Source: an uncultured Alphaproteobacteria bacterium (GTDB taxonomy: Bacteria > Pseudomonadota > Alphaproteobacteria > Rhizobiales > Rhodomicrobiaceae). Taken from it: 64,000 nucleotides of DNA. Position numbers and translations under genes: made by a program. Where the stretch lies: contig CAWFPF010000007.1 of NCBI GenBank assembly GCA_963817705.1, positions 7,275-71,274 of the forward strand. Direction: 5' to 3'. Of this stretch, positions 33,986-57,365 are shown one piece after another (position 1 is the first letter of the stretch; each line of letters opens with the position of its first letter). The notes under the pieces are model-generated. The model was not told where the DNA came from. It did not search any database and saw nothing but the letters and a program-made list of their open reading frames with translations.

Positions 33986-34456
33986 ATGCCGGCAAGCACG
34001 ATCTACAAGCTCCTCACGCGCACCGAATGGGAAGCGGCGCAAGCTGCGGGCGTCTATTGCGGCTCGGCGCACGATAGGCGCGACGGGTTCATCCACTTTT
34101 CCGCGGCGGGGCAGCTTGCGGAGACGGCGCGAAAGTATTTCTCTGGCGTGCCCGATTTGGTCTTGCTGGCGGTTGATGCCGCCGCTTTGACGGAAAGTCT
34201 TACCCCTCATCCCGCCCTTCTCCCAATGGGAGAAGGGACGCTTGAACATGGCACAATGCCAGCCGCAACGTCCCCTCTCCCAGAGGGAGAGGGACAGGGT
34301 GAGGGGTATCACTCTCTCCGCTGGGAACCCTCCCGAGGCGGCGATCTCTTTCCGCACCTCTACGCCAATCTGCCCATCGCGGCGGTGACGAGCGTCATCG
34401 CAATCCCGCTTGCCGCTGATGGCGTTCCCATTATCCCGAGCGAACTCGCGCCATGA
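33986..34456 (+). CDS. DUF952 family protein carrying an in-frame repeat insertion
   Basis: IYKLLTRTEW...DRRDGFIHFS...LRWEPSRGGDLFPHLY; 36 extra codons from the repeat; usual position upstream of pyrD. Confidence 0.9.
   Translation: MPASTIYKLLTRTEWEAAQAAGVYCGSAHDRRDGFIHFSAAGQLAETARKYFSGVPDLVLLAVDAAALTESLTPHPALLPMGEGTLEHGTMPAATSPLPEGEGQGEGYHSLRWEPSRGGDLFPHLYANLPIAAVTSVIAIPLAADGVPIIPSELAP
34201..34308. repeat. Palindromic repeat copy A (108 bp, in-frame in DUF952)
   Basis: Termini TACCCCTCA/TGAGGGGTA; two internal hairpins CCCTTCTCCCAATGGGAGAAGGG and CCCTCTCCCAGAGGGAGAGGG. Confidence 0.9.
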
Positions 34457-40707: not shown

Positions 40708-41230
40708 TCAAGTTGAATTGCATGGCGCTGTCGAGGAACGGCATCGACGGCGGTTTACGGCCGCGGCGACCCCTCGCTCCGCAATGCGTTGAAGCGCGAT
40801 GTCTGGGATTTCGGGCCCAAAGATCCGGGTTCGCCCCCGGGGCCGCGATGGCTTCCATCCCGGACGAGCGGCCTGCGAGCGATCCATCTCGGGTGATGAG
40901 ACGCCACTCATAGGTGACCGTGATGATGTTTTTTCGACGCGCGATCTTAAGGCCGCATTCTAGGCGGTAATCGCCGCCGGCGCGCTCGTAATTCAAAAGC
41001 ACGATGCCTGCGCGGCGTGTCTCGTCATCGAGCCGATGCACAAGCCGGTCCGACACGGCCGCAGGTGGACCTGCCACATCGCCCAAAGCGACGGCAGCAA
41101 CTTGCGGCGCCTCCGGCCTGATCTGTGCGGACCCTGGCATTGGGACGGGTGGAACCAACGACCCGCATCCCGCAAGCTCCGCCGCCGTAGCCGCGAAGAG
41201 CATTGCCGCAGTGCGTGAAAGGAGACGCAT
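40708..41230 (-). CDS. Putative lipoprotein (apparent +1 frameshift at 40807-40812)
   Basis: Lipobox LAGC; removing one A from minus-strand GAAATC gives ...PDLWARIPDIALQRIAERG and a stop at 40708. Confidence 0.68.
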
Positions 41231-47376: not shown

Positions 47377-48550
47377 GCCGCCTCCATGGTGGTACGATGG
47401 CCAGATCCCACTGGCCGCCTGGGGGCTGCTTCCTATCTCGGCGGCCTATGGTGCCATCGTGCAAAGGCGGTTCCGGACCGTTTCGCCTTACCGGAGCAAG
47501 CTTCCGGTTATCTGCATCGGCAATTTCACCATGGGCGGCGCGGGCAAAACACCGGTTGCCCTAAAGCTTGCGCCGCTCTTGCTGGGCGCGGGCCGAAAGC
47601 CGGCGTTTCTTTCGCGCGGCTATGGCGGCCATGAACTTGGTCCGCATGTGGTGGACGCCGCCTTGGACGAAGCCGGCCGGGTGGGCGACGAACCGCTGCT
47701 CTTGGCGGAGGTAGCGCCAACCGTAGTCAGCCGGGACCGTCCGGCGGGTGCCCGGCTCATCGAAGCGCTCGGCGCCGATACCATCGTCATGGATGACGGT
47801 TTTCAAAATCCGTCGCTCAAGAAAGATTTCAGCCTGATCGTGGTGGACGCTGGGGCAGGCATTGGCTCGGGCCGCATCTTTCCGCTCGGCCCCTTGCGCG
47901 CGCCGCTGGGCTTCCAAGCGGGCATGGCCGATGCCATTCTGATTTTGGGCGAAGACCCGGCGGGGGAGAGCCTTCAACGGGTGAACGCCAGTTTGAGAGG
48001 AAGATACCCCTCACCCCAACCCTCTCCCGCAAGGGGAGAGGGGGCAGGGCGCGCGCGTTGTGAGGGCGTCCCTTCTCTCCCGCAAGCTAGCCTTGACGAG
48101 CTTGCCATTCCGAGATCCAGCAAGCGGATGCGGACGGGAGAAGGACAGGATGAGGGGGCCTGCTTCTGCCGCGGCCTAAACGCCTTCGAGGCCAAAATCG
48201 TGCCGCGGATCACCGATGATATGCGCGGCCGGCGGTTCCTCGCGTTTTGCGGCATCGGGCGCCCCGCCAAATTTTTTGAGACGTTGCGTCAGGCCGGCGT
48301 CGCAGCGGTCAGAACCCGGAGCTTCCCCGATCACCACGCTTATTTGGAGACGGACGCGCTTTCGCTCCTCGGCGAAGCCAACGCGCTCGGCGCCGGGCTG
48401 ATCACCACCGGAAAAGACCTCGTGCGCCTCAGACACAAGTCCGGCGCCTTGGGAGAGCTAGGCCGGTCCACGCTTGCCTTACCGGTCACGGTCGAATTCG
48501 CGGACGGCCACGAGGCTTTGCTGATTAAGGCCCTGCAAGCGCGCTTTTAA
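47366..48550 (+). CDS. lpxK: Tetraacyldisaccharide 4'-kinase with an in-frame repeat insertion
   Basis: IGNFTMGGAGKTP, SRGYGG, GDEP, MDDGFQ, AFCGIGRP and FPDHH motifs. Confidence 0.95.
   Translation: MPLEPPPWWYDGQIPLAAWGLLPISAAYGAIVQRRFRTVSPYRSKLPVICIGNFTMGGAGKTPVALKLAPLLLGAGRKPAFLSRGYGGHELGPHVVDAALDEAGRVGDEPLLLAEVAPTVVSRDRPAGARLIEALGADTIVMDDGFQNPSLKKDFSLIVVDAGAGIGSGRIFPLGPLRAPLGFQAGMADAILILGEDPAGESLQRVNASLRGRYPSPQPSPARGEGAGRARCEGVPSLPQASLDELAIPRSSKRMRTGEGQDEGACFCRGLNAFEAKIVPRITDDMRGRRFLAFCGIGRPAKFFETLRQAGVAAVRTRSFPDHHAYLETDALSLLGEANALGAGLITTGKDLVRLRHKSGALGELGRSTLALPVTVEFADGHEALLIKALQARF
48007..48157. repeat. Palindromic repeat copy B (in-frame in lpxK)
   Basis: CCCCTCACCCCAACCCTCTCCCGCAAGGGGAGAGGG...GGGAGAAGGACAGGATGAGGGG. 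Confidence 0.9.
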
Positions 48551-52950: not shown

Positions 52951-54939
52951 ATGTCCGACACCCTGCCCAAAGTGCTGCTTCATAACGCGCGGGTGTTCGC
53001 GAAACGGCCTGCAATCCGGTTGAAGGATCTCGGCATTTGGCAGACCTGGACTTGGGCCGAAGCCGCAGAAGAAGTGCGGGCCTTCGCCATCGGGCTCAAC
53101 CGGCTTGGAGTCCGGCGGGGGGAGACGATTGCGATTGTGGGCGACAACAGGCCACGGCTTTACTGGGCGATGATGGCCGCGCAGAGCCTCGGCGCCATTC
53201 CGGTTCCCATGTATCAGGACTCGGTGGCGCAAGAGATGGCCTATGTGCTGGGCCACTCCGAGGCGAGGCTCGCCGTCGCTCAGAACCAGGAGCAGGTGGA
53301 CAAGCTCCTATCCATCGCCGAAGAGGCGCCGCTGTTACACCAGATCGTTTACGACGAGCCGAGGGGGTTGCAGGATTACGAGACGGGCCGTGTCCGGAGC
53401 TTCGAGAGCGTCGCCGCGGAGGGGCGCGCCGCCCTGAAACGCGAGCCGAAGCTTGCGGAGGGCTGGCTCGCGGACGTCGAGCGCGGGTCGGGCAACGATC
53501 CCGGCGTTATTCTCTATACCTCCGGCACCACCGGCCAGCCCAAGGGCGTCGTCCTCAGCCACAGCAATGTGCTCGTAACGGCACGCAACGCGAATGCGTT
53601 CGACAAGATCTCGGAGAAGGACGAAATCATCGCCTATCTGCCCATGGCTTGGGTCGGCGACCACATCTTCAGCTATGGACAAGCGCTCGCGGCCGGGTTT
53701 TGCGTGTCATGCCCCGAAAGCCCGCAGACCGTACTGGAGGACCGCCGGGAGATAGGGCCGACCTATTTTTTCGCGCCGCCCCGCGTCTACGAGAATCTCC
53801 TCACCTCCATCATGGTACGCATGGAGGATGCGGGCTCCATCAAGCGCGCCATGTTCAAAGGCTTTATGGCCGTCGCAAAACGGGCGGGCGAGCCGATCTT
53901 GAATGGCGAGCGTGTTTCCCCTTTCACGCGCGCGCTTTATGGCCTTGGCCAGGTTCTGGTTTATGGACCTGTCAAGAACCGGCTGGGGCTCACCCGCGCG
54001 CGCGTGGCCTATACGGCCGGTGAAGCCATCGGGCCGGAGATCTTCCGCTTCTACCGTTCCCTCGGCCTAAACCTGAAGCAGTTCTACGGCCAAACCGAAG
54101 CCAGCGTGTATGTGACCTTGCAGGCCGACGGCGAGATTGGCGCGGAGACCGTAGGCAGGCCCGCGCCGGGCGTTGAGGTGCGCGTGTCGCCCTCGGGCGA
54201 GGTCGAATATTGCGGACCCGGCGTTTTCCTCCGCTACTTTAAGAATGACGAGGCTACCGAAAATACCAAGACACCCGATGGCTGGGTGAAGACCGGCGAT
54301 GCAGGGATCGTCGAGCCGGATGGGTCGCTGAAGATCATCGACCGGGCCAAGGATGTGGGCCGGCTGACCGGCGGCGCGCTGCTGCCGCCGAAATATCTCG
54401 AAAACAAGCTGAAATTCTATCCAAACATCAAGGAGGCGGTGGCATTTGGCGACGGGCGCGATTTCGCGGCGGCCTTCATCAACATCGATCTGCTCTCCGT
54501 CGGCAATTGGGCCGAACGCAACAACGTCACCTATGCGAGCTATCAGGAGCTCGCCGCCCACTCGCGAGTCTACGACATGGTTCGTGCCCATGTCGATGAG
54601 GTTAACCGGAGCCTTGCGAAGGAGCCCATGCTTGCGGGGGCACAGATCCGGAGATTTCTCATCCTGCACAAGGAACTCGACGCAGACGATGGCGAGCTGA
54701 CGCGCACGCAGAAAGTCCGGCGAGGCTTCATTGCGGAGCGCTATGCGCCGCTCGTCGCCGCGCTTTATGACGGCTCGGCGGAGAAACACATTGCCACCGC
54801 CGTTACCTTCGAGGATGGCCGCAAAGGCGTGATCGAGGCAACCGTGCGCATCGCCGATATGCCGGCCTATACAGCCGAGGGGAATCCGATGCCCGCAATC
54901 GCGATGCCCTCCCAGTCTCATTTGGAGGCGGCGGAATGA
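52951..54939 (+). CDS. Long-chain fatty-acid-CoA ligase (AMP-binding)
   Basis: YTSGTTGQPKG, FYGQTE and KTGDAG motifs. Confidence 0.92.
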   Translation: MSDTLPKVLLHNARVFAKRPAIRLKDLGIWQTWTWAEAAEEVRAFAIGLNRLGVRRGETIAIVGDNRPRLYWAMMAAQSLGAIPVPMYQDSVAQEMAYVLGHSEARLAVAQNQEQVDKLLSIAEEAPLLHQIVYDEPRGLQDYETGRVRSFESVAAEGRAALKREPKLAEGWLADVERGSGNDPGVILYTSGTTGQPKGVVLSHSNVLVTARNANAFDKISEKDEIIAYLPMAWVGDHIFSYGQALAAGFCVSCPESPQTVLEDRREIGPTYFFAPPRVYENLLTSIMVRMEDAGSIKRAMFKGFMAVAKRAGEPILNGERVSPFTRALYGLGQVLVYGPVKNRLGLTRARVAYTAGEAIGPEIFRFYRSLGLNLKQFYGQTEASVYVTLQADGEIGAETVGRPAPGVEVRVSPSGEVEYCGPGVFLRYFKNDEATENTKTPDGWVKTGDAGIVEPDGSLKIIDRAKDVGRLTGGALLPPKYLENKLKFYPNIKEAVAFGDGRDFAAAFINIDLLSVGNWAERNNVTYASYQELAAHSRVYDMVRAHVDEVNRSLAKEPMLAGAQIRRFLILHKELDADDGELTRTQKVRRGFIAERYAPLVAALYDGSAEKHIATAVTFEDGRKGVIEATVRIADMPAYTAEGNPMPAIAMPSQSHLEAAE

Positions 54940-55793
54940 ACGCGCCTGAAACCGTTACGGTGGCCGGCAGCGCCCCCCTGGAAGAAGCGCCGGCGCCGCG
55001 CCGTCAGTTTTCCGAGGTTCTCCTCTCAGTCGAGAACATCACGCTGAGTTTTGGCGGCGTACGCGCGCTGAACGCCATCAGCTTCGACATCCGCAAGGGC
55101 GAAATCCGCGCCATCATCGGCCCCAACGGCGCCGGCAAAACCTCGATGCTGAATGTCATCAACGGCTTCTATCATCCGCAATCCGGGCTTATCACATTCA
55201 AGGGCAGGAAGCGCCGCCGCATGCGTCCGCACCGGGCCGCCGCGCAAGGCATCGCACGCACTTTCCAGAATGTCGCGCTGTTCAAGGGCATGAGCACGCT
55301 CGACAATCTTATGGCGGGGCGGATGCTGAAGATGCGGCGCGGCCTGTTCTGGCATGCGCTCTACTGGGGGCCGGCGCAGTGGGAGGAAATCCGCCACCGG
55401 CGCGTGGTCGAGGATATCATCGACTTCCTGCGCATCGAGCACATCCGCAAAACACCGGTCGGCAAGCTGCCCTACGGCTTGCAAAAGCGGGTGGAGCTTG
55501 GACGCGCGCTGGCCATGGAGCCCGAACTGTTGCTGCTCGACGAGCCCATGGCAGGCATGAACGTCGAGGAGAAGGAGGATATGTCCCGCTTCATCATCGA
55601 TGTGAACGAGCAATTCGGGACAACGATCGCGCTCATCGAGCATGACATGGGCGTGGTGATGGACCTGTCGGACCGCGTTGTGGTGCTGGACTACGGACGC
55701 AAGATCGCGGATGGCCCGCCGTCCGAGGTGCAAGCGAACCAGGCTGTGATCGGCGCCTATCTCGGCGTCCCCGATAGCGAGGGTGCGGCATGA
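54936..55793 (+). CDS. LIV-type ABC transporter ATPase (LivG-like)
   Basis: GPNGAGKT, LPYGLQKRVE and LLDEP motifs. Confidence 0.94.
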   Translation: MNAPETVTVAGSAPLEEAPAPRRQFSEVLLSVENITLSFGGVRALNAISFDIRKGEIRAIIGPNGAGKTSMLNVINGFYHPQSGLITFKGRKRRRMRPHRAAAQGIARTFQNVALFKGMSTLDNLMAGRMLKMRRGLFWHALYWGPAQWEEIRHRRVVEDIIDFLRIEHIRKTPVGKLPYGLQKRVELGRALAMEPELLLLDEPMAGMNVEEKEDMSRFIIDVNEQFGTTIALIEHDMGVVMDLSDRVVVLDYGRKIADGPPSEVQANQAVIGAYLGVPDSEGAA

Positions 55794-55978
55794 GAAGCGT
55801 AGCTGACGGCACTGCCAAGTTCCCCCTCACCCCAACCCTCTCCCCGAGGGGAGAGGGAGCAAAAGCCGCGACCCTCTCAAGAGAAGTGGCTGCGGCCCAC
55901 TTCCAGAGCGGAAAGGGAGATGTTGGCGTCCCTTCTCCCCTTGGGGAGAAGGACAGGATGAGGGGGTCTTGCCCATGA
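55790..55978 (+). CDS. 62-aa bridging mini-ORF encoded by repeat C
   Basis: ATGA overlaps with both the ATPase stop and the DUF559 start; protein function doubtful. Confidence 0.35.
   Translation: MRSVADGTAKFPLTPTLSPRGEGAKAATLSREVAAAHFQSGKGDVGVPSPLGEKDRMRGSCP
55822..55966. repeat. Palindromic repeat copy C
   Basis: CCCCCTCACCCCAACCCTCTCCCCGAGGGGAGAGGG...CCCTTCTCCCCTTGGGGAGAAGGACAGGATGAGGGGG. Confidence 0.93.
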
Positions 55979-56472
55979 AAGTCGCCCTGACCCCTATTGC
56001 ACGGAAGTTACGGCACGAAACCACCGATGCGGAACTCCGCCTGTGGCTTGCCTTGCGAAACCGGCAAATCAAAGGGTTCAAGTTCAAGCGGCAAGTGCCA
56101 TTCGGCCCCTACATCGCGGACCTCCTCTGCGTTGAAGCAAGGCTGATTGTCGAAGCCGACGGCGGCCAGCACGCTGTGCAAGAGGCTTCCGGCCGAACGC
56201 GAACGGCATACTTGGAGAGCCAAGGCTATCGCGTGCTGCGGTTCTGGAATAACGATGTGCTTCAGAACCTGGAGGGGGTGCTTGAAACAATTGCGGAAAC
56301 GCTGGGGAGCGAGTCTCCCCTCACCCTGACCCTCTCCCCGAGGGGGGAGGGAAAAAAAGCCGCAGCCCTCTCAAGAGAAGTAGTTGCGGCGGCCGATCCC
56401 ATCGGAGCGGCCGCTTCCTGCGTCCCTTCTCCCCTTGGGGAGAAGGACAGGATGAGGGGGTCTTCCTCATGA
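55975..56472 (+). CDS. DUF559 (Vsr-like) endonuclease; C-terminal about 50 aa read through repeat D
   Basis: ARKLR...TDAE..LW..LR...FKRQVPFGPYIAD...EADGGQH...GYRVLRFWNNDV. Confidence 0.92.
   Translation: MKVALTPIARKLRHETTDAELRLWLALRNRQIKGFKFKRQVPFGPYIADLLCVEARLIVEADGGQHAVQEASGRTRTAYLESQGYRVLRFWNNDVLQNLEGVLETIAETLGSESPLTLTLSPRGEGKKAAALSREVVAAADPIGAAASCVPSPLGEKDRMRGSSS
56317..56460. repeat. Palindromic repeat copy D
   Basis: Shares the right end GCGTCCCTTCTCCCCTTGGGGAGAAGGACAGGATGAGGGGGTCTT exactly with copy C. Confidence 0.93.
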
Positions 56473-57365
56473 CGTTCTTCGCAGAAACGGTCATCAGCGG
56501 CCTCCTGACGGGGGTGATGTACTCGCTCGTCGCGCTCGGCTTCGTGCTGATCTACAAGGCAAGCGGCGTCTTCAATTTCGCGCAAGGCGTCATGGCGCTG
56601 TTCGCGGCGCTGACGCTCACGGGTCTGATGAACGAGTATCACGTGCCGGTGTGGGGCGCGATCCCGCTCACGATTCTGGTCATGATCGCGCTCGCTTTCG
56701 TGGTCGAGTGGGCGATCCTGCGGCGCCTCGTGAACCAGGAGCCGATCGTGCTGTTCATGGCGACGCTCGGCCTCGCCTATATCCTGGAGGGGCTTGGCGA
56801 CATCGTCTGGGGGCCGGACGTCAAGGTTCTCGACCTCGGCCTGCCGGAGGGCGCGAACAACTGGCTCCTCGACAATTTCAACATCTACATCGAGCGCATC
56901 GAGATCTTAGCGGCCGCGACGGCGGCAATCCTGGTCGCGGTGCTCGCAATCTTCTTCCAGCGCACGCGCACAGGCCGCGCCCTGCGCGCGGTGGCCGACG
57001 ACCATCAGGCCGCACTCTCTGTCGGCATCTCCCTATCCGCGATCTGGGTGATCGTGTGGTCGGTCGCGGGCATTGTGGCGCTGGTGGCGGGCATCATGTG
57101 GGGTGCGAAGTCGGGCGTGCAGTTCTCGCTTTCGCTCATCGCGCTGAAGGCGCTGCCCGTGCTGATCCTCGGCGGCTTTACCAGCGTTCCCGGCGCTATC
57201 GTTGGCGGTCTCATTATCGGCGTCGGCGAGAAGCTTGCGGAAATCTACGCCGGGCCAATCATCGGCGGCGCCATCGAGAACTGGTTCGCCTATGTGCTCG
57301 CACTCATGTTCCTGCTGGTGCGGCCGCAGGGCCTCTTCGGCGAGAAGATCATCGAGCGGATTTGA
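56469..57365 (+). CDS. LIV-type ABC permease (LivH-like)
   Basis: YSLVALGFVLIYKASGVFNFAQG and RTRTGRALRAVADD motifs. Confidence 0.94.
   Translation: MTFFAETVISGLLTGVMYSLVALGFVLIYKASGVFNFAQGVMALFAALTLTGLMNEYHVPVWGAIPLTILVMIALAFVVEWAILRRLVNQEPIVLFMATLGLAYILEGLGDIVWGPDVKVLDLGLPEGANNWLLDNFNIYIERIEILAAATAAILVAVLAIFFQRTRTGRALRAVADDHQAALSVGISLSAIWVIVWSVAGIVALVAGIMWGAKSGVQFSLSLIALKALPVLILGGFTSVPGAIVGGLIIGVGEKLAEIYAGPIIGGAIENWFAYVLALMFLLVRPQGLFGEKIIERI

Follow-up and report, generated by a model that had tools for sequence, protein, structure and literature searches.

A DUF559 nuclease gene framed by BoxC/TMECO-type triplex-motif repeats in the Rhodomicrobiaceae: a candidate protein partner for a widespread bacterial repeat

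The DUF559 cassette at the livG/livH junction

The window (the whole stretch of 64,000 nucleotides that we analysed, from an uncultured member of the Rhodomicrobiaceae) carries a DUF559 gene between two genes of an ABC transporter, a livG-like ATPase gene (54936–55793, + strand; ABC_tran E 9e-31, with BCA_ABC_TP_C) and a livH-like permease gene (56469–57365, + strand; BPD_transp_2 E 1.8e-31). The DUF559 ORF (55975–56472, + strand; PF04480 E 7.9e-40) encodes a protein of 165 amino acids with a predicted Vsr-like PD-(D/E)XK fold, and is reached through a 62-codon mini-ORF from the ORF list (55790–55978, + strand) which spans the upstream repeat, repeat C, in frame and ends in the ATGA that starts DUF559. 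The left boundary of the insert is marked by a first CATGA (55789–55793, + strand) which holds the TGA stop of the livG-like gene and the ATG of the bridging mini-ORF, a second CATGA lies at the join between repeat C and the DUF559 start (55974–55978), and a third (56468–56472, + strand) marks the right boundary and supplies the stop of the DUF559 frame and the ATG of the livH-like gene. The overlapping ATGA junctions that lead from livG to the mini-ORF, DUF559 and livH form a coupling chain.

Repeat C (about 55816–55978) and the downstream repeat D (about 56312–56472) are each a pair of inverted ~35-nt units (55822–55857 and 56318–56351 on the + strand, 55931–55964 and 56425–56458 on the − strand) and share 82% identity over 158 nt, which bears out the view of the initial annotation that the nuclease gene sits between two double-hairpin repeats. 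The left unit of repeat C (55822–55857, + strand) consists of a C-rich head pointing outward, a 3-nt linker and a hairpin, and matches the TMECO pattern (PMC4666352), while the right unit (55931–55968, − strand) runs through hairpin and linker to a head directed towards the DUF559 start and includes a conserved GTCTT tail which recurs at other copies. The left unit of repeat D (56318–56351, + strand) has its head towards the end of DUF559 and one slightly degenerate hairpin arm, and the right unit (about 56425–56462, − strand) has its head outward and is followed by GTCTT and CATGA.

DUF559 is among the most widespread nuclease families of "unknown function" and includes E. coli YcjD. The window protein matches PF04480 with 135.6 bits (cut-off 20.6) over profile positions 4–108 of 109, with the domain covering residues 6–110 of 165 and the last ~55 residues being repeat D read in frame, and it also matches PDB 3HRL (E 1.7e-36), a solved structure of the family without an assigned function. 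Among 19 DUF559 sequences D49, D62, Q65 and H66 are invariant and E60 is present in at least 90% (window-protein numbering), and these acidic residues and the histidine would form a Vsr-like active site with a catalytic role. The dN/dS ratios (0.09–0.16 between the window gene and its orthologues, and 0.05–0.25 for the DUF559 genes of the genus) indicate purifying selection, and with the conserved residues they argue that the function of DUF559 is retained. When we looked for a Vsr profile or methyltransferase linkage, the window protein matched only DUF559 and, below threshold, MTES_1575, and no methyltransferase gene adjoins DUF559, the neighbours being the ABC transporter genes. Genomes of the genus carry 0–3 copies of the gene at three syntenic loci with the same neighbours across the genus; the exceptions to this synteny are c-type DUF559 genes found at new sites, such as that of G007, which is at another site.

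The livG/livH junction itself exists in several states among the relatives of the genome under study (G000). G013 has nothing inserted there, G021 and G007 have a doublet alone, G003 has the gene with no upstream doublet, and G000 and G002 have the full cassette. The initial annotation had suggested that the CATGA repeats bound an insert which splits an original gene junction; the flanking CATGAs are present and the empty site of G013 has a single CATGA, but a duplication cannot be separated here from the requirements of translational coupling, which also needs this sequence at the livG/livH junction, the only place where the direct repeat was seen.

Identity and copies of the repeat

For about thirty years BoxC/PIT/TMECO repeats have been on record, and hundreds of bacterial genomes contain them; to our knowledge, neither their origin nor an enzyme or function has been established. 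Judged by its sequence pattern, the repeat of the window is this intrastrand-triplex motif, with each half of a doublet being one motif, and the idea that it represents a private and new family is not upheld given its match to the published pattern. The literature on BoxC/PIT/TMECO (1990s; Hoyne and Maher 2000; PMC4666352) describes the same unit pattern, occurring as singles and as inverted pairs of two subtypes, and there as here the number of units varies widely between close relatives and the units mark unstable sites. Only for the E. coli motif has the formation of an intrastrand triplex been demonstrated in vitro, and genomic instability has been associated with triplex units (PMC4666352). 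The papers on the motif name no associated protein, and Holder et al. (2015; PMC4666352) reported that they found no mobility gene close to it, whereas in our genomes DUF559 lies between units and the two tend to occur together.

The unit pattern we matched comprises a C-stem, a loop of 3–6, a G-stem, a loop of 3 and a G-rich head. The general pattern has 159 matches in G000 and none when read backwards, and our census of this genome gave about 170 loci with 157 strict units, or 217 units at ≤1 mismatch, of which 103 are solo. As the backwards pattern gives 0 against 157 strict units, the abundance of the repeat in G000 is far beyond chance. Covariation is almost perfect, with head position 7 concordant with stem position 3 and its partner in 151 of 152 units (p = 9e-43), which suggests that the head mirrors the G-stem, as in base triplets, although common descent of two subfamilies could give the same covariation. 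Other lineages have other matched sets of head and stem, and the stems and heads of units are kept between species whose synonymous sites are saturated. The copies in G000 are old, with the best full-length partner at most 95% identical (median about 85%) and none recent.

Nuclease-free copies had been proposed at four places in the window, and we confirm three: a doublet of the same family at 34204–34305, in frame inside a DUF952 gene, a copy at 48008–about 48157, inside the LpxK reading frame and with a divergent right unit, and a doublet with heads outward at 59936–60028. The fourth, at 1921–1960, is a degenerate single unit. Most genomes of the genus have units at the DUF952 site, though not all of one type, and doublets persist at orthologous sites but are flipped at two of the four sites shared by G000 and G002. 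Both cassettes and doublets occur in frame inside genes. The doublets of G000 and the genus have heads outward, with many copies in frame within genes, whereas most E. coli doublets have heads inward and a spacer of 18–29 nt, so that no single derivation from the cassette fits both.

We found no consistent target duplication at the DUF952 site across 24 genomes, in 400 kb of G002 compared with G000, or in two E. coli BoxC pairs compared with strains that do not have them. What separates filled from empty alleles is instead a stretch of replaced or filler sequence, or a deletion that lies between the paired C-stems. At the ycjD site of E. coli IHE3034 an efflux-gene island is found in place of the gene, and the insertion boundary is therefore unreadable there.

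Association between DUF559 and the repeat

All three DUF559 copies of G000 are flanked on both sides by a unit whose G-rich head points to the gene, in a genome with only about 7 head-in neighbour pairs within 700 bp. Other genes found between head-in units in G000 were rejected as candidates, being ordinary genes with separate repeat insertions. Every full-length DUF559 copy we fetched from the genus is flanked on both sides except that of G003, where the upstream unit is absent, and each of the three syntenic loci has its own unit subtype. Across 76 loci from the Alpha-, Beta-, Gamma- and Deltaproteobacteria, Chloroflexi, Binatia, Nitrospirae and others, 89% have flanking inverted repeats scoring above the 95th percentile of the controls (median score 21 vs 8), and the controls, which were shifted windows from the same loci, contained no such repeats. 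At least one head-proximal unit is present in 82 of 101 DUF559 loci from many phyla, and in 58 of the 101 there is one on both sides, with orientation and gene–unit spacing (a few to a few tens of bases) alike across phyla. E. coli ycjD has a degenerate unit at the gene end and a TMECO 167 nt downstream, again oriented with the head facing the gene. The adjacency of DUF559 and this repeat, suggested at first from the single locus, thus extends from this genome to the genus, the order and many phyla, and in the literature we found no paper that links DUF559 to BoxC.

The genome-wide census further indicates that repeat abundance tracks DUF559 presence, both in the genus and among 200 Alphaproteobacteria. 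Across 24 genomes of the genus, unit counts are 21–327 (median 137) where there is an intact gene and 0–34 (median 7) where there is none (Mann-Whitney p = 1e-4), and there have been several losses of DUF559 which are nested in the species tree. Forward-strand ratios bearing on decay after gene loss were 0.41–0.75 without the gene and 0.50–0.94 with it, in a 2-mismatch count where overlapping matches are counted repeatedly, and they show no clear acceleration of decay once the gene is lost. For the 200 Alphaproteobacteria, ten or more units are present in 25 of 48 genomes with the gene and 4 of 152 without it (odds ratio 40), and the odds ratio is 23 for three or more units and 12.8 when only genomes of 3 Mb or more are counted. 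E. coli K-12, in which ycjD is present, has about 24 units and IHE3034, in which it is absent, has 2.

There are also exceptions to this association. Among 5426 E. coli genomes, for which we have totals only, there is a match to the K-12 doublet in 4618 but to ycjD in no more than 3378. Fifteen of the 48 gene-bearing Alphaproteobacteria have no unit by the pattern used, while G171 (86 units) and G220 (72 units) are repeat-rich and have no detectable DUF559. The PF04480 search of genomes left the E. coli control unflagged although K-12 has ycjD, so that the absences may include false negatives, and the main exceptions, G171 and G220 among them, were re-checked with a family profile. G005 and G018 have the 'a' paralogue alone and yet carry about 150 short-linker units each, and the long-linker units belonging to this paralogue are found only at the gene itself and are not amplified. 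A strict logic in which each paralogue serves its cognate subtype is not borne out by such short-linker-rich genomes.

Possible roles of DUF559 and its repeats

A low-copy, syntenic and selected gene lying between inverted copies of a genome-wide repeat gives the layout parallel to REP/RAYT systems which the initial annotation had recognised. In REPIN/RAYT systems (REPtrons; Nunvar 2010; Bertels and Rainey 2011, PMC3116915) a low-copy, vertically inherited and selected gene is likewise found between inverted repeats, the repeat is spread through the genome singly and as inverted doublets, its population tends to be small where the gene is missing (here with G171 and G220 as exceptions), and there are several gene paralogues, each with its own repeat subtype. 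They differ in that a Vsr-like PD-(D/E)XK nuclease is found here instead of an HUH Y1 transposase, and covalent single-strand transposition is therefore not open to it; unlike REP repeats, the repeat here has no GTAG/CGTC head, and it has a third mirror-repeat segment and old whole-doublet copies. We rejected RAYT as the mobiliser in G000, where the Y1 (PF01797) genes are ordinary IS200/605 copies that have ends of their own and lack neighbouring triplex units.

Vsr is a site- and structure-specific nickase, and we know of no PD-(D/E)XK nuclease that can perform strand transfer itself. Vsr, Caulobacter VsrA and I-Bth0305I belong to the same fold family as DUF559; the homing endonuclease I-Bth0305I, which is grouped with DUF559, demonstrates that the fold can drive homing (PMC3424549), and Caulobacter VsrA is an example of a DUF559 protein able to cause DNA damage in vivo (PMC12907096). 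In contrast to Vsr and the homing nucleases, the gene here is free-standing between repeats and has no adjacent methyltransferase, intron or intein. Insertion sequences and their MITEs are similar in having terminal inverted repeats that frame a gene and gene-less derivatives scattered in the genome, but the protein here lacks a transposase fold and the filled sites show no consistent target duplication. Rickettsia palindromic elements are similar in that copies are tolerated in frame within proteins, and their sequences are unrelated.

Our preferred reading, which we hold tentatively and at a little less than an even chance, is that DUF559 and the surrounding triplex units are one genetic unit, with the nuclease acting as the protein partner of the genome-wide BoxC/TMECO-type repeats. 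DUF559 would be a Vsr-like nicking or cutting enzyme that recognises the unit (the hairpin plus mirror-repeat head), probably once this has been extruded as non-B DNA, and makes its cut next to the unit, and the host would repair the break by copying from other units. Such repair would keep the ~35-nt units alike while spacers and flanks drift, would allow doublets to flip in place, and would occasionally copy a doublet or the whole cassette into a new break, as at the CATGA overlap of livG and livH. Repeats or the gene itself would sometimes be placed in frame within genes and operon junctions, and the resulting instability of repeat sites would be that already described for them. Lying between its own sites, the gene would travel with them, and the system would be functionally like REPIN/RAYT with the chemistry of a homing nuclease rather than of an HUH transposase.

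The next reading, which we regard as unlikely though deserving of serious attention, is that the cassette alone is selfish, with the units as its own ends and the gene-less doublets as footprints of past insertions rather than elements mobilised in trans. These footprints would arise by internal deletion or by recombination between the two doublets, in the manner of a collapse to a solo LTR, and since C and D are direct repeats such recombination would leave an ATGA-bounded lone doublet like those of G021 and G007. The head-in E. coli BoxC pairs with their short spacers have the layout of the cassette minus the gene, as does the one gene-less head-in pair of G000 (C1:1963334–1963422), and the in-frame positions of cassettes and doublets alike and the co-occurrence of gene and units in the Alphaproteobacteria are what this reading also predicts. 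It would, however, need hundreds of insertions per genome from a gene that is confined to 0–3 syntenic loci and is under purifying selection, the minimal cassettes of locus b have no direct repeats for a collapse, and nearly half of the units in G000 are solo.

It is less likely again, and in our view rather improbable, that DUF559 is a host caretaker, a repair or structure-specific nuclease kept where triplex repeats abound because it lessens their harm, either by nicking mismatches like Vsr, which has been proposed for Caulobacter VsrA, or by resolving hairpins or triplexes, with the flanking units regulating or insulating the gene. DNA damage induces Caulobacter VsrA, itself a DUF559 protein, and VsrA has a functional tie to a cytosine methyltransferase (PMC12907096); triplex units are tied to instability (PMC4666352), the gene keeps its synteny and low copy number under purifying selection, and the co-occurrence fits repeats that depend on the enzyme. 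A caretaker leaves unexplained, however, why the gene lies exactly between inverted head-in units in many phyla, why it came to be inserted at an operon junction where G013 has no insert, and why many genomes have the gene and only its two units (Table S1 of PMC4666352, counts of 2); nor does a methyltransferase gene adjoin DUF559 here. Finally, the absence of any functional link, with repeats accumulating around a dispensable gene or both favouring the same permissive intergenic sites, would suit the variety of sites in which repeats are found, coding frames included, and the repeat-rich G171 and G220, but it is already hard to hold against the constant orientation and spacing across phyla, the repeat-free control windows and odds ratios of 13–40, and we consider it very improbable.

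Returning to the reading of gene and units as one genetic unit, the REP/RAYT-like system that had been proposed stands as far as the strong association and the parallel layout are concerned; that the nuclease spreads or maintains the repeat is a step we infer, and G171, G220 and the genomes with only the 'a' paralogue count against it. So do the gene-bearing Alphaproteobacteria in which no unit was matched, the E. coli totals, the age of the copies in G000, the want of a consistent target duplication, the opposite head orientations of doublets here and in E. coli, and the inability of a PD-(D/E)XK nuclease to perform strand transfer. Because the gene and the repeat occur together across bacteria, the DUF559 family is the best candidate for the BoxC protein partner. 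More tentatively still, DUF559 may be the missing enzyme partner of BoxC/PIT/TMECO throughout bacteria and, jointly with this, the pair may form a second class of long-lived replicators, each a repeat plus a single-copy enzyme, with a mechanism unrelated to REPIN/RAYT in which a Vsr-like nickase recognises non-B DNA and copying is break-induced.

The link between DUF559 and BoxC gives the repeat and the nuclease family each a testable role. If true, it would provide a non-HUH counterpart to the REPIN/RAYT paradigm, suggest a different interpretation of the DNA-damage phenotype seen for Caulobacter VsrA, and account for the repeat-derived peptide inserts seen in essential proteins.

The livG/livH insert and its repeat units

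The insert between the livG-like ABC ATPase gene (54936–55793) and the livH-like permease gene (56469–57365) is 678 bp long and runs in the order CATGA, a leader of ~30 nt, repeat C, CATGA, the DUF559 ORF (55975–56472; PF04480, E 7.9e-40, residues 6–110), repeat D and CATGA. Coordinates and sequence comparison bear out the initial annotation, which had described double-hairpin repeats around DUF559, CATGA bounds and further copies. Repeats C and D are direct repeats with 82% identity, each a doublet of two inverted ~35-nt units, and the C-terminal 55 residues of the ORF are a read-through of repeat D. Three overlapping ATGA junctions chain livG, a 62-codon mini-ORF crossing repeat C (55790–55978), DUF559 and livH, and therefore coupled translation could persist through the insert; it may be that only inserts which keep this chain survive here. 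Such selection would confound the reading of CATGA as a target duplication. The motif could be a target duplication, microhomology, or sequence left by selection for translational coupling.

In each unit a C-rich head (CCCTCACCC or CCCTCATCC) is joined through a 3-nt linker to a hairpin (CCCTCTCCC or CCTTCTCCC, loop, complement). At the level of sequence the opposite strand is exactly the published BoxC / PIT / TMECO “intrastrand triplex motif” pattern, with 3610 copies across 262 proteobacterial genomes (Holder et al. 2015, PMC4666352). These authors reported that the motif forms a triplex in vitro and that two subtypes of it occur as inverted pairs, tied it to genomic instability, and never saw transposase or integrase remnants near it (PMC4666352). 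If the head were a mirror-repeat third strand, it would have to vary together with the stem and the stem's partner, and it does so in 151 of 152 units of the source genome (G000); descent from two subfamilies could also produce this pattern. A census of this genome found ~170 repeat loci, and 217 units at ≤1 mismatch, the latter arranged as 57 heads-outward doublets (heads facing away from the pair centre) and 103 solo units.

The nuclease-free copies reported at 34201, 48007, 59936 and partly at 1920 were found at 34204–34305 (inside a DUF952 gene, in frame), 48008–about 48157 (inside LpxK, in frame) and 59936–60028, with a degenerate unit near 1921–1960. Further loci in coding sequences of G000 lie at C1:925096–925825, C1:1022973–1023636 and C1:1833336–1834044, and the in-frame hosts include LpxK, the DUF952 protein, a cobyric-acid-synthase-like gene and a transglycosylase-like gene, where doublets contribute peptides such as PLTLSPxGEG, similar to the peptide-adding in-frame inserts of Rickettsia palindromic elements. 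The DUF952 site is filled in most genomes of the genus, with varying unit types.

The suggestion of a REP/RAYT-like system survives in part, as the gene is framed by a genome-wide repeat which tracks it, but a strict REP/RAYT system was rejected: the only Y1 transposase genes of the genome are of the IS200/605 type (two identical copies at C2:284881–285237 and C4:20841–21197, and a partial copy at C1:2045279–2045545), with no units nearby and with GC-rich hairpin ends of their own that bear no relation to the triplex units. The ORF here does not match the Vsr profile and has no methyltransferase gene beside it.

Framing of DUF559 genes and co-occurrence with the repeat

The DUF559 gene and its flanking units form one inherited unit. 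The source genome has three copies, two intact and one fragment, each with a hairpin-then-head unit directly upstream and a head-then-hairpin unit directly downstream such that the heads face the gene. Across 24 genomes of the genus DUF559 occurs 0–3 times per genome at the same three syntenic loci, each with its own unit subtype: one flanked by a cysS-like and a citramalate-synthase-like gene (a), one after a suf-type gene (b), and the livG/livH junction (c). Four more families of the order have the identical layout with different sequence variants, and a wider scan using one genome per species added 80 DUF559 loci from Alpha-, Beta-, Gamma- and Deltaproteobacteria, Chloroflexi, Binatia, Nitrospirae and others, with the same hairpin–linker–head build throughout. 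The flank-to-flank inverted repeat exceeded the control 95th percentile in 89% of 76 scorable loci (median score 21, versus 8 in shifted control windows). The proposed adjacency thus holds in the genome, the genus, the four families and many phyla, with at least one head-proximal unit at 82 of 101 DUF559 loci and both at 58.

In Escherichia coli K-12 the 3' end of ycjD, the best-known DUF559 gene, falls inside a degenerate unit. Next come a duplicated fragment of the 3' part of the gene and, after it, the unit numbered TMECO no. 9 by Holder et al., which their supplementary table places beside ycjD without comment (PMC4666352). Exactly two motifs are listed in Table S1 for many genomes, e.g. 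Neisseria gonorrhoeae, several Xanthomonas, Sphingobium and Sphingomonas (PMC4666352). A count of two would be expected if a genome's sole copies are the two units on either side of a DUF559 gene. We take N. gonorrhoeae to be the source organism of PDB 3HRL. Separately, the relative G003 (L034) carries two tandem ~92-nt unit-plus-spacer copies and more units directly 3' of DUF559, with none upstream, a pattern resembling local amplification next to DUF559.

Gene and genome-wide repeat population occur together. Within the genus, unit counts are 21–327 (median 137) where the gene is intact versus 0–34 (median 7) in nine gene-less genomes (p = 1e-4), and two fragment-only genomes have 24 and 40. 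Gene-less genomes do not form one clade on a four-protein species tree: G013 + G021, G009 + G023 and G016 fall inside the large gene-bearing clade, with G016 beside G012, which retains a gene fragment only, G024/G008 branch just outside it, and two basal genomes have neither gene nor units. Among 200 evenly drawn Alphaproteobacteria (184 genera, completeness ≥90%), at least three units were found in 31/48 gene-bearing versus 11/152 gene-less genomes (odds ratio 23) and at least ten in 25/48 versus 4/152 (odds ratio 40); for genomes ≥3 Mb the odds ratio was 12.8. There were exceptions to this association: fifteen gene-bearing genomes in this sample had zero units by the search pattern used, and DUF559 was not detected in G171 (86 units) or G220 (72 units) even with a family-profile search, for which recent gene loss or a different partner enzyme are candidate explanations. 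The units of these two mostly form heads-outward doublets. E. coli K-12, with ycjD, has ~24 units versus 2 in IHE3034, without it; the totals over 5426 E. coli genomes, by contrast, form another exception, with a K-12 doublet matched in 4618 and ycjD found in 3378.

Junction states, mobility and age

Four states of the livG/livH junction were seen among six related species: a single CATGA in G013, the empty site the initial annotation had called for; a lone, ATGA-bounded doublet (G021, G007); the gene immediately behind livG, followed but not preceded by units (G003); and the full doublet–gene–doublet cassette (G000, G002). In more distant genera the junction is short and ordinary. G007 has its c-type gene at another site, and DUF559 of G003 is only 59% identical to that of G000 though livH is 90% identical; within the genus the gene has therefore changed position or undergone replacement. 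The main alternative to a partner role for DUF559 (below) is that mobility belongs to the cassette alone, the doublets being what it leaves behind on collapse, since recombination between direct repeats C and D would leave exactly the lone doublet of G021 and G007, and heads-inward, short-spacer E. coli pairs resemble cassettes minus the gene; we regard this as possible but doubtful. A consistent target duplication was not found at the DUF952 site, in G000/G002 pairs or in E. coli BoxC pairs.

Four of five E. coli BoxC pairs are heads-inward, opposite to the heads-outward doublets of this genus. The sole close pair of that kind in the source genome (C1:1963334–1963422, gene-less, 25-nt spacer) has the layout of a DUF559 cassette minus the gene. 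When K-12 NC_000913 164547–164631 and 3239599–3239698 (L218, L219) were compared with ST131 (L220), 2547 (L221) and LR-25 (L222), pair-less strains had 15 nt of unrelated filler or one head-less hairpin, consistent with deletion between two C-stems, and an unrelated ~290-bp segment occupied the same spot in one strain.

The system is for the most part old and stable. DUF559 genes are syntenic with dN/dS of 0.05–0.25, and on the family tree each of the three paralogue groups is monophyletic and widely separated from the others. G000 and G002 have doublets at orthologous sites despite flanks only 75–80% identical, and at two of four shared sites (G002:C18 about 40754–40834 and 152614–152711 versus G000 C4:165600–165790 and C4:329750–330050) the doublet is flipped, with unit subtypes swapped left/right, either by inversion in place or by conversion. 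Pairwise comparison of G000 doublets found none >95% alike. Protein and units are both under constraint: stems and heads are conserved across species with saturated synonymous sites, while loops, spacers and flanks drift.

A candidate partner protein

Our tentative preference, from sequence comparisons and at slightly less than even chances, is that DUF559 is the partner protein of the genome-wide repeat; the exact mechanism is less certain than this role. The nuclease would recognise the unit and nick or cut beside it, and the break would be repaired by copying from other units. This would explain homogeneous units with non-homogeneous spacers, in-place doublet flips, the instability of sites, and the occasional doublet or whole cassette in a new break. 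A role as host caretaker would fit the Caulobacter VsrA data but leaves framing and insertion unaccounted for, and is improbable.

The repeat and the DUF559 family are each already known. We found no paper on repeats in the DUF559 literature and none linking DUF559 to BoxC repeats. Holder et al. identified no gene associated with their motif (PMC4666352), Vsr goes unmentioned in the REPIN/RAYT literature, and DUF559 is given, without comment, as enriched among the predicted inversion targets of a 2023 survey. New here are the co-occurrence figures, both within the genus and across the class, together with the tree; the succession of states at a single junction, an empty site among them; the flipped orthologous doublets; and the finding that doublets can have their heads outward or inward, depending on the lineage.
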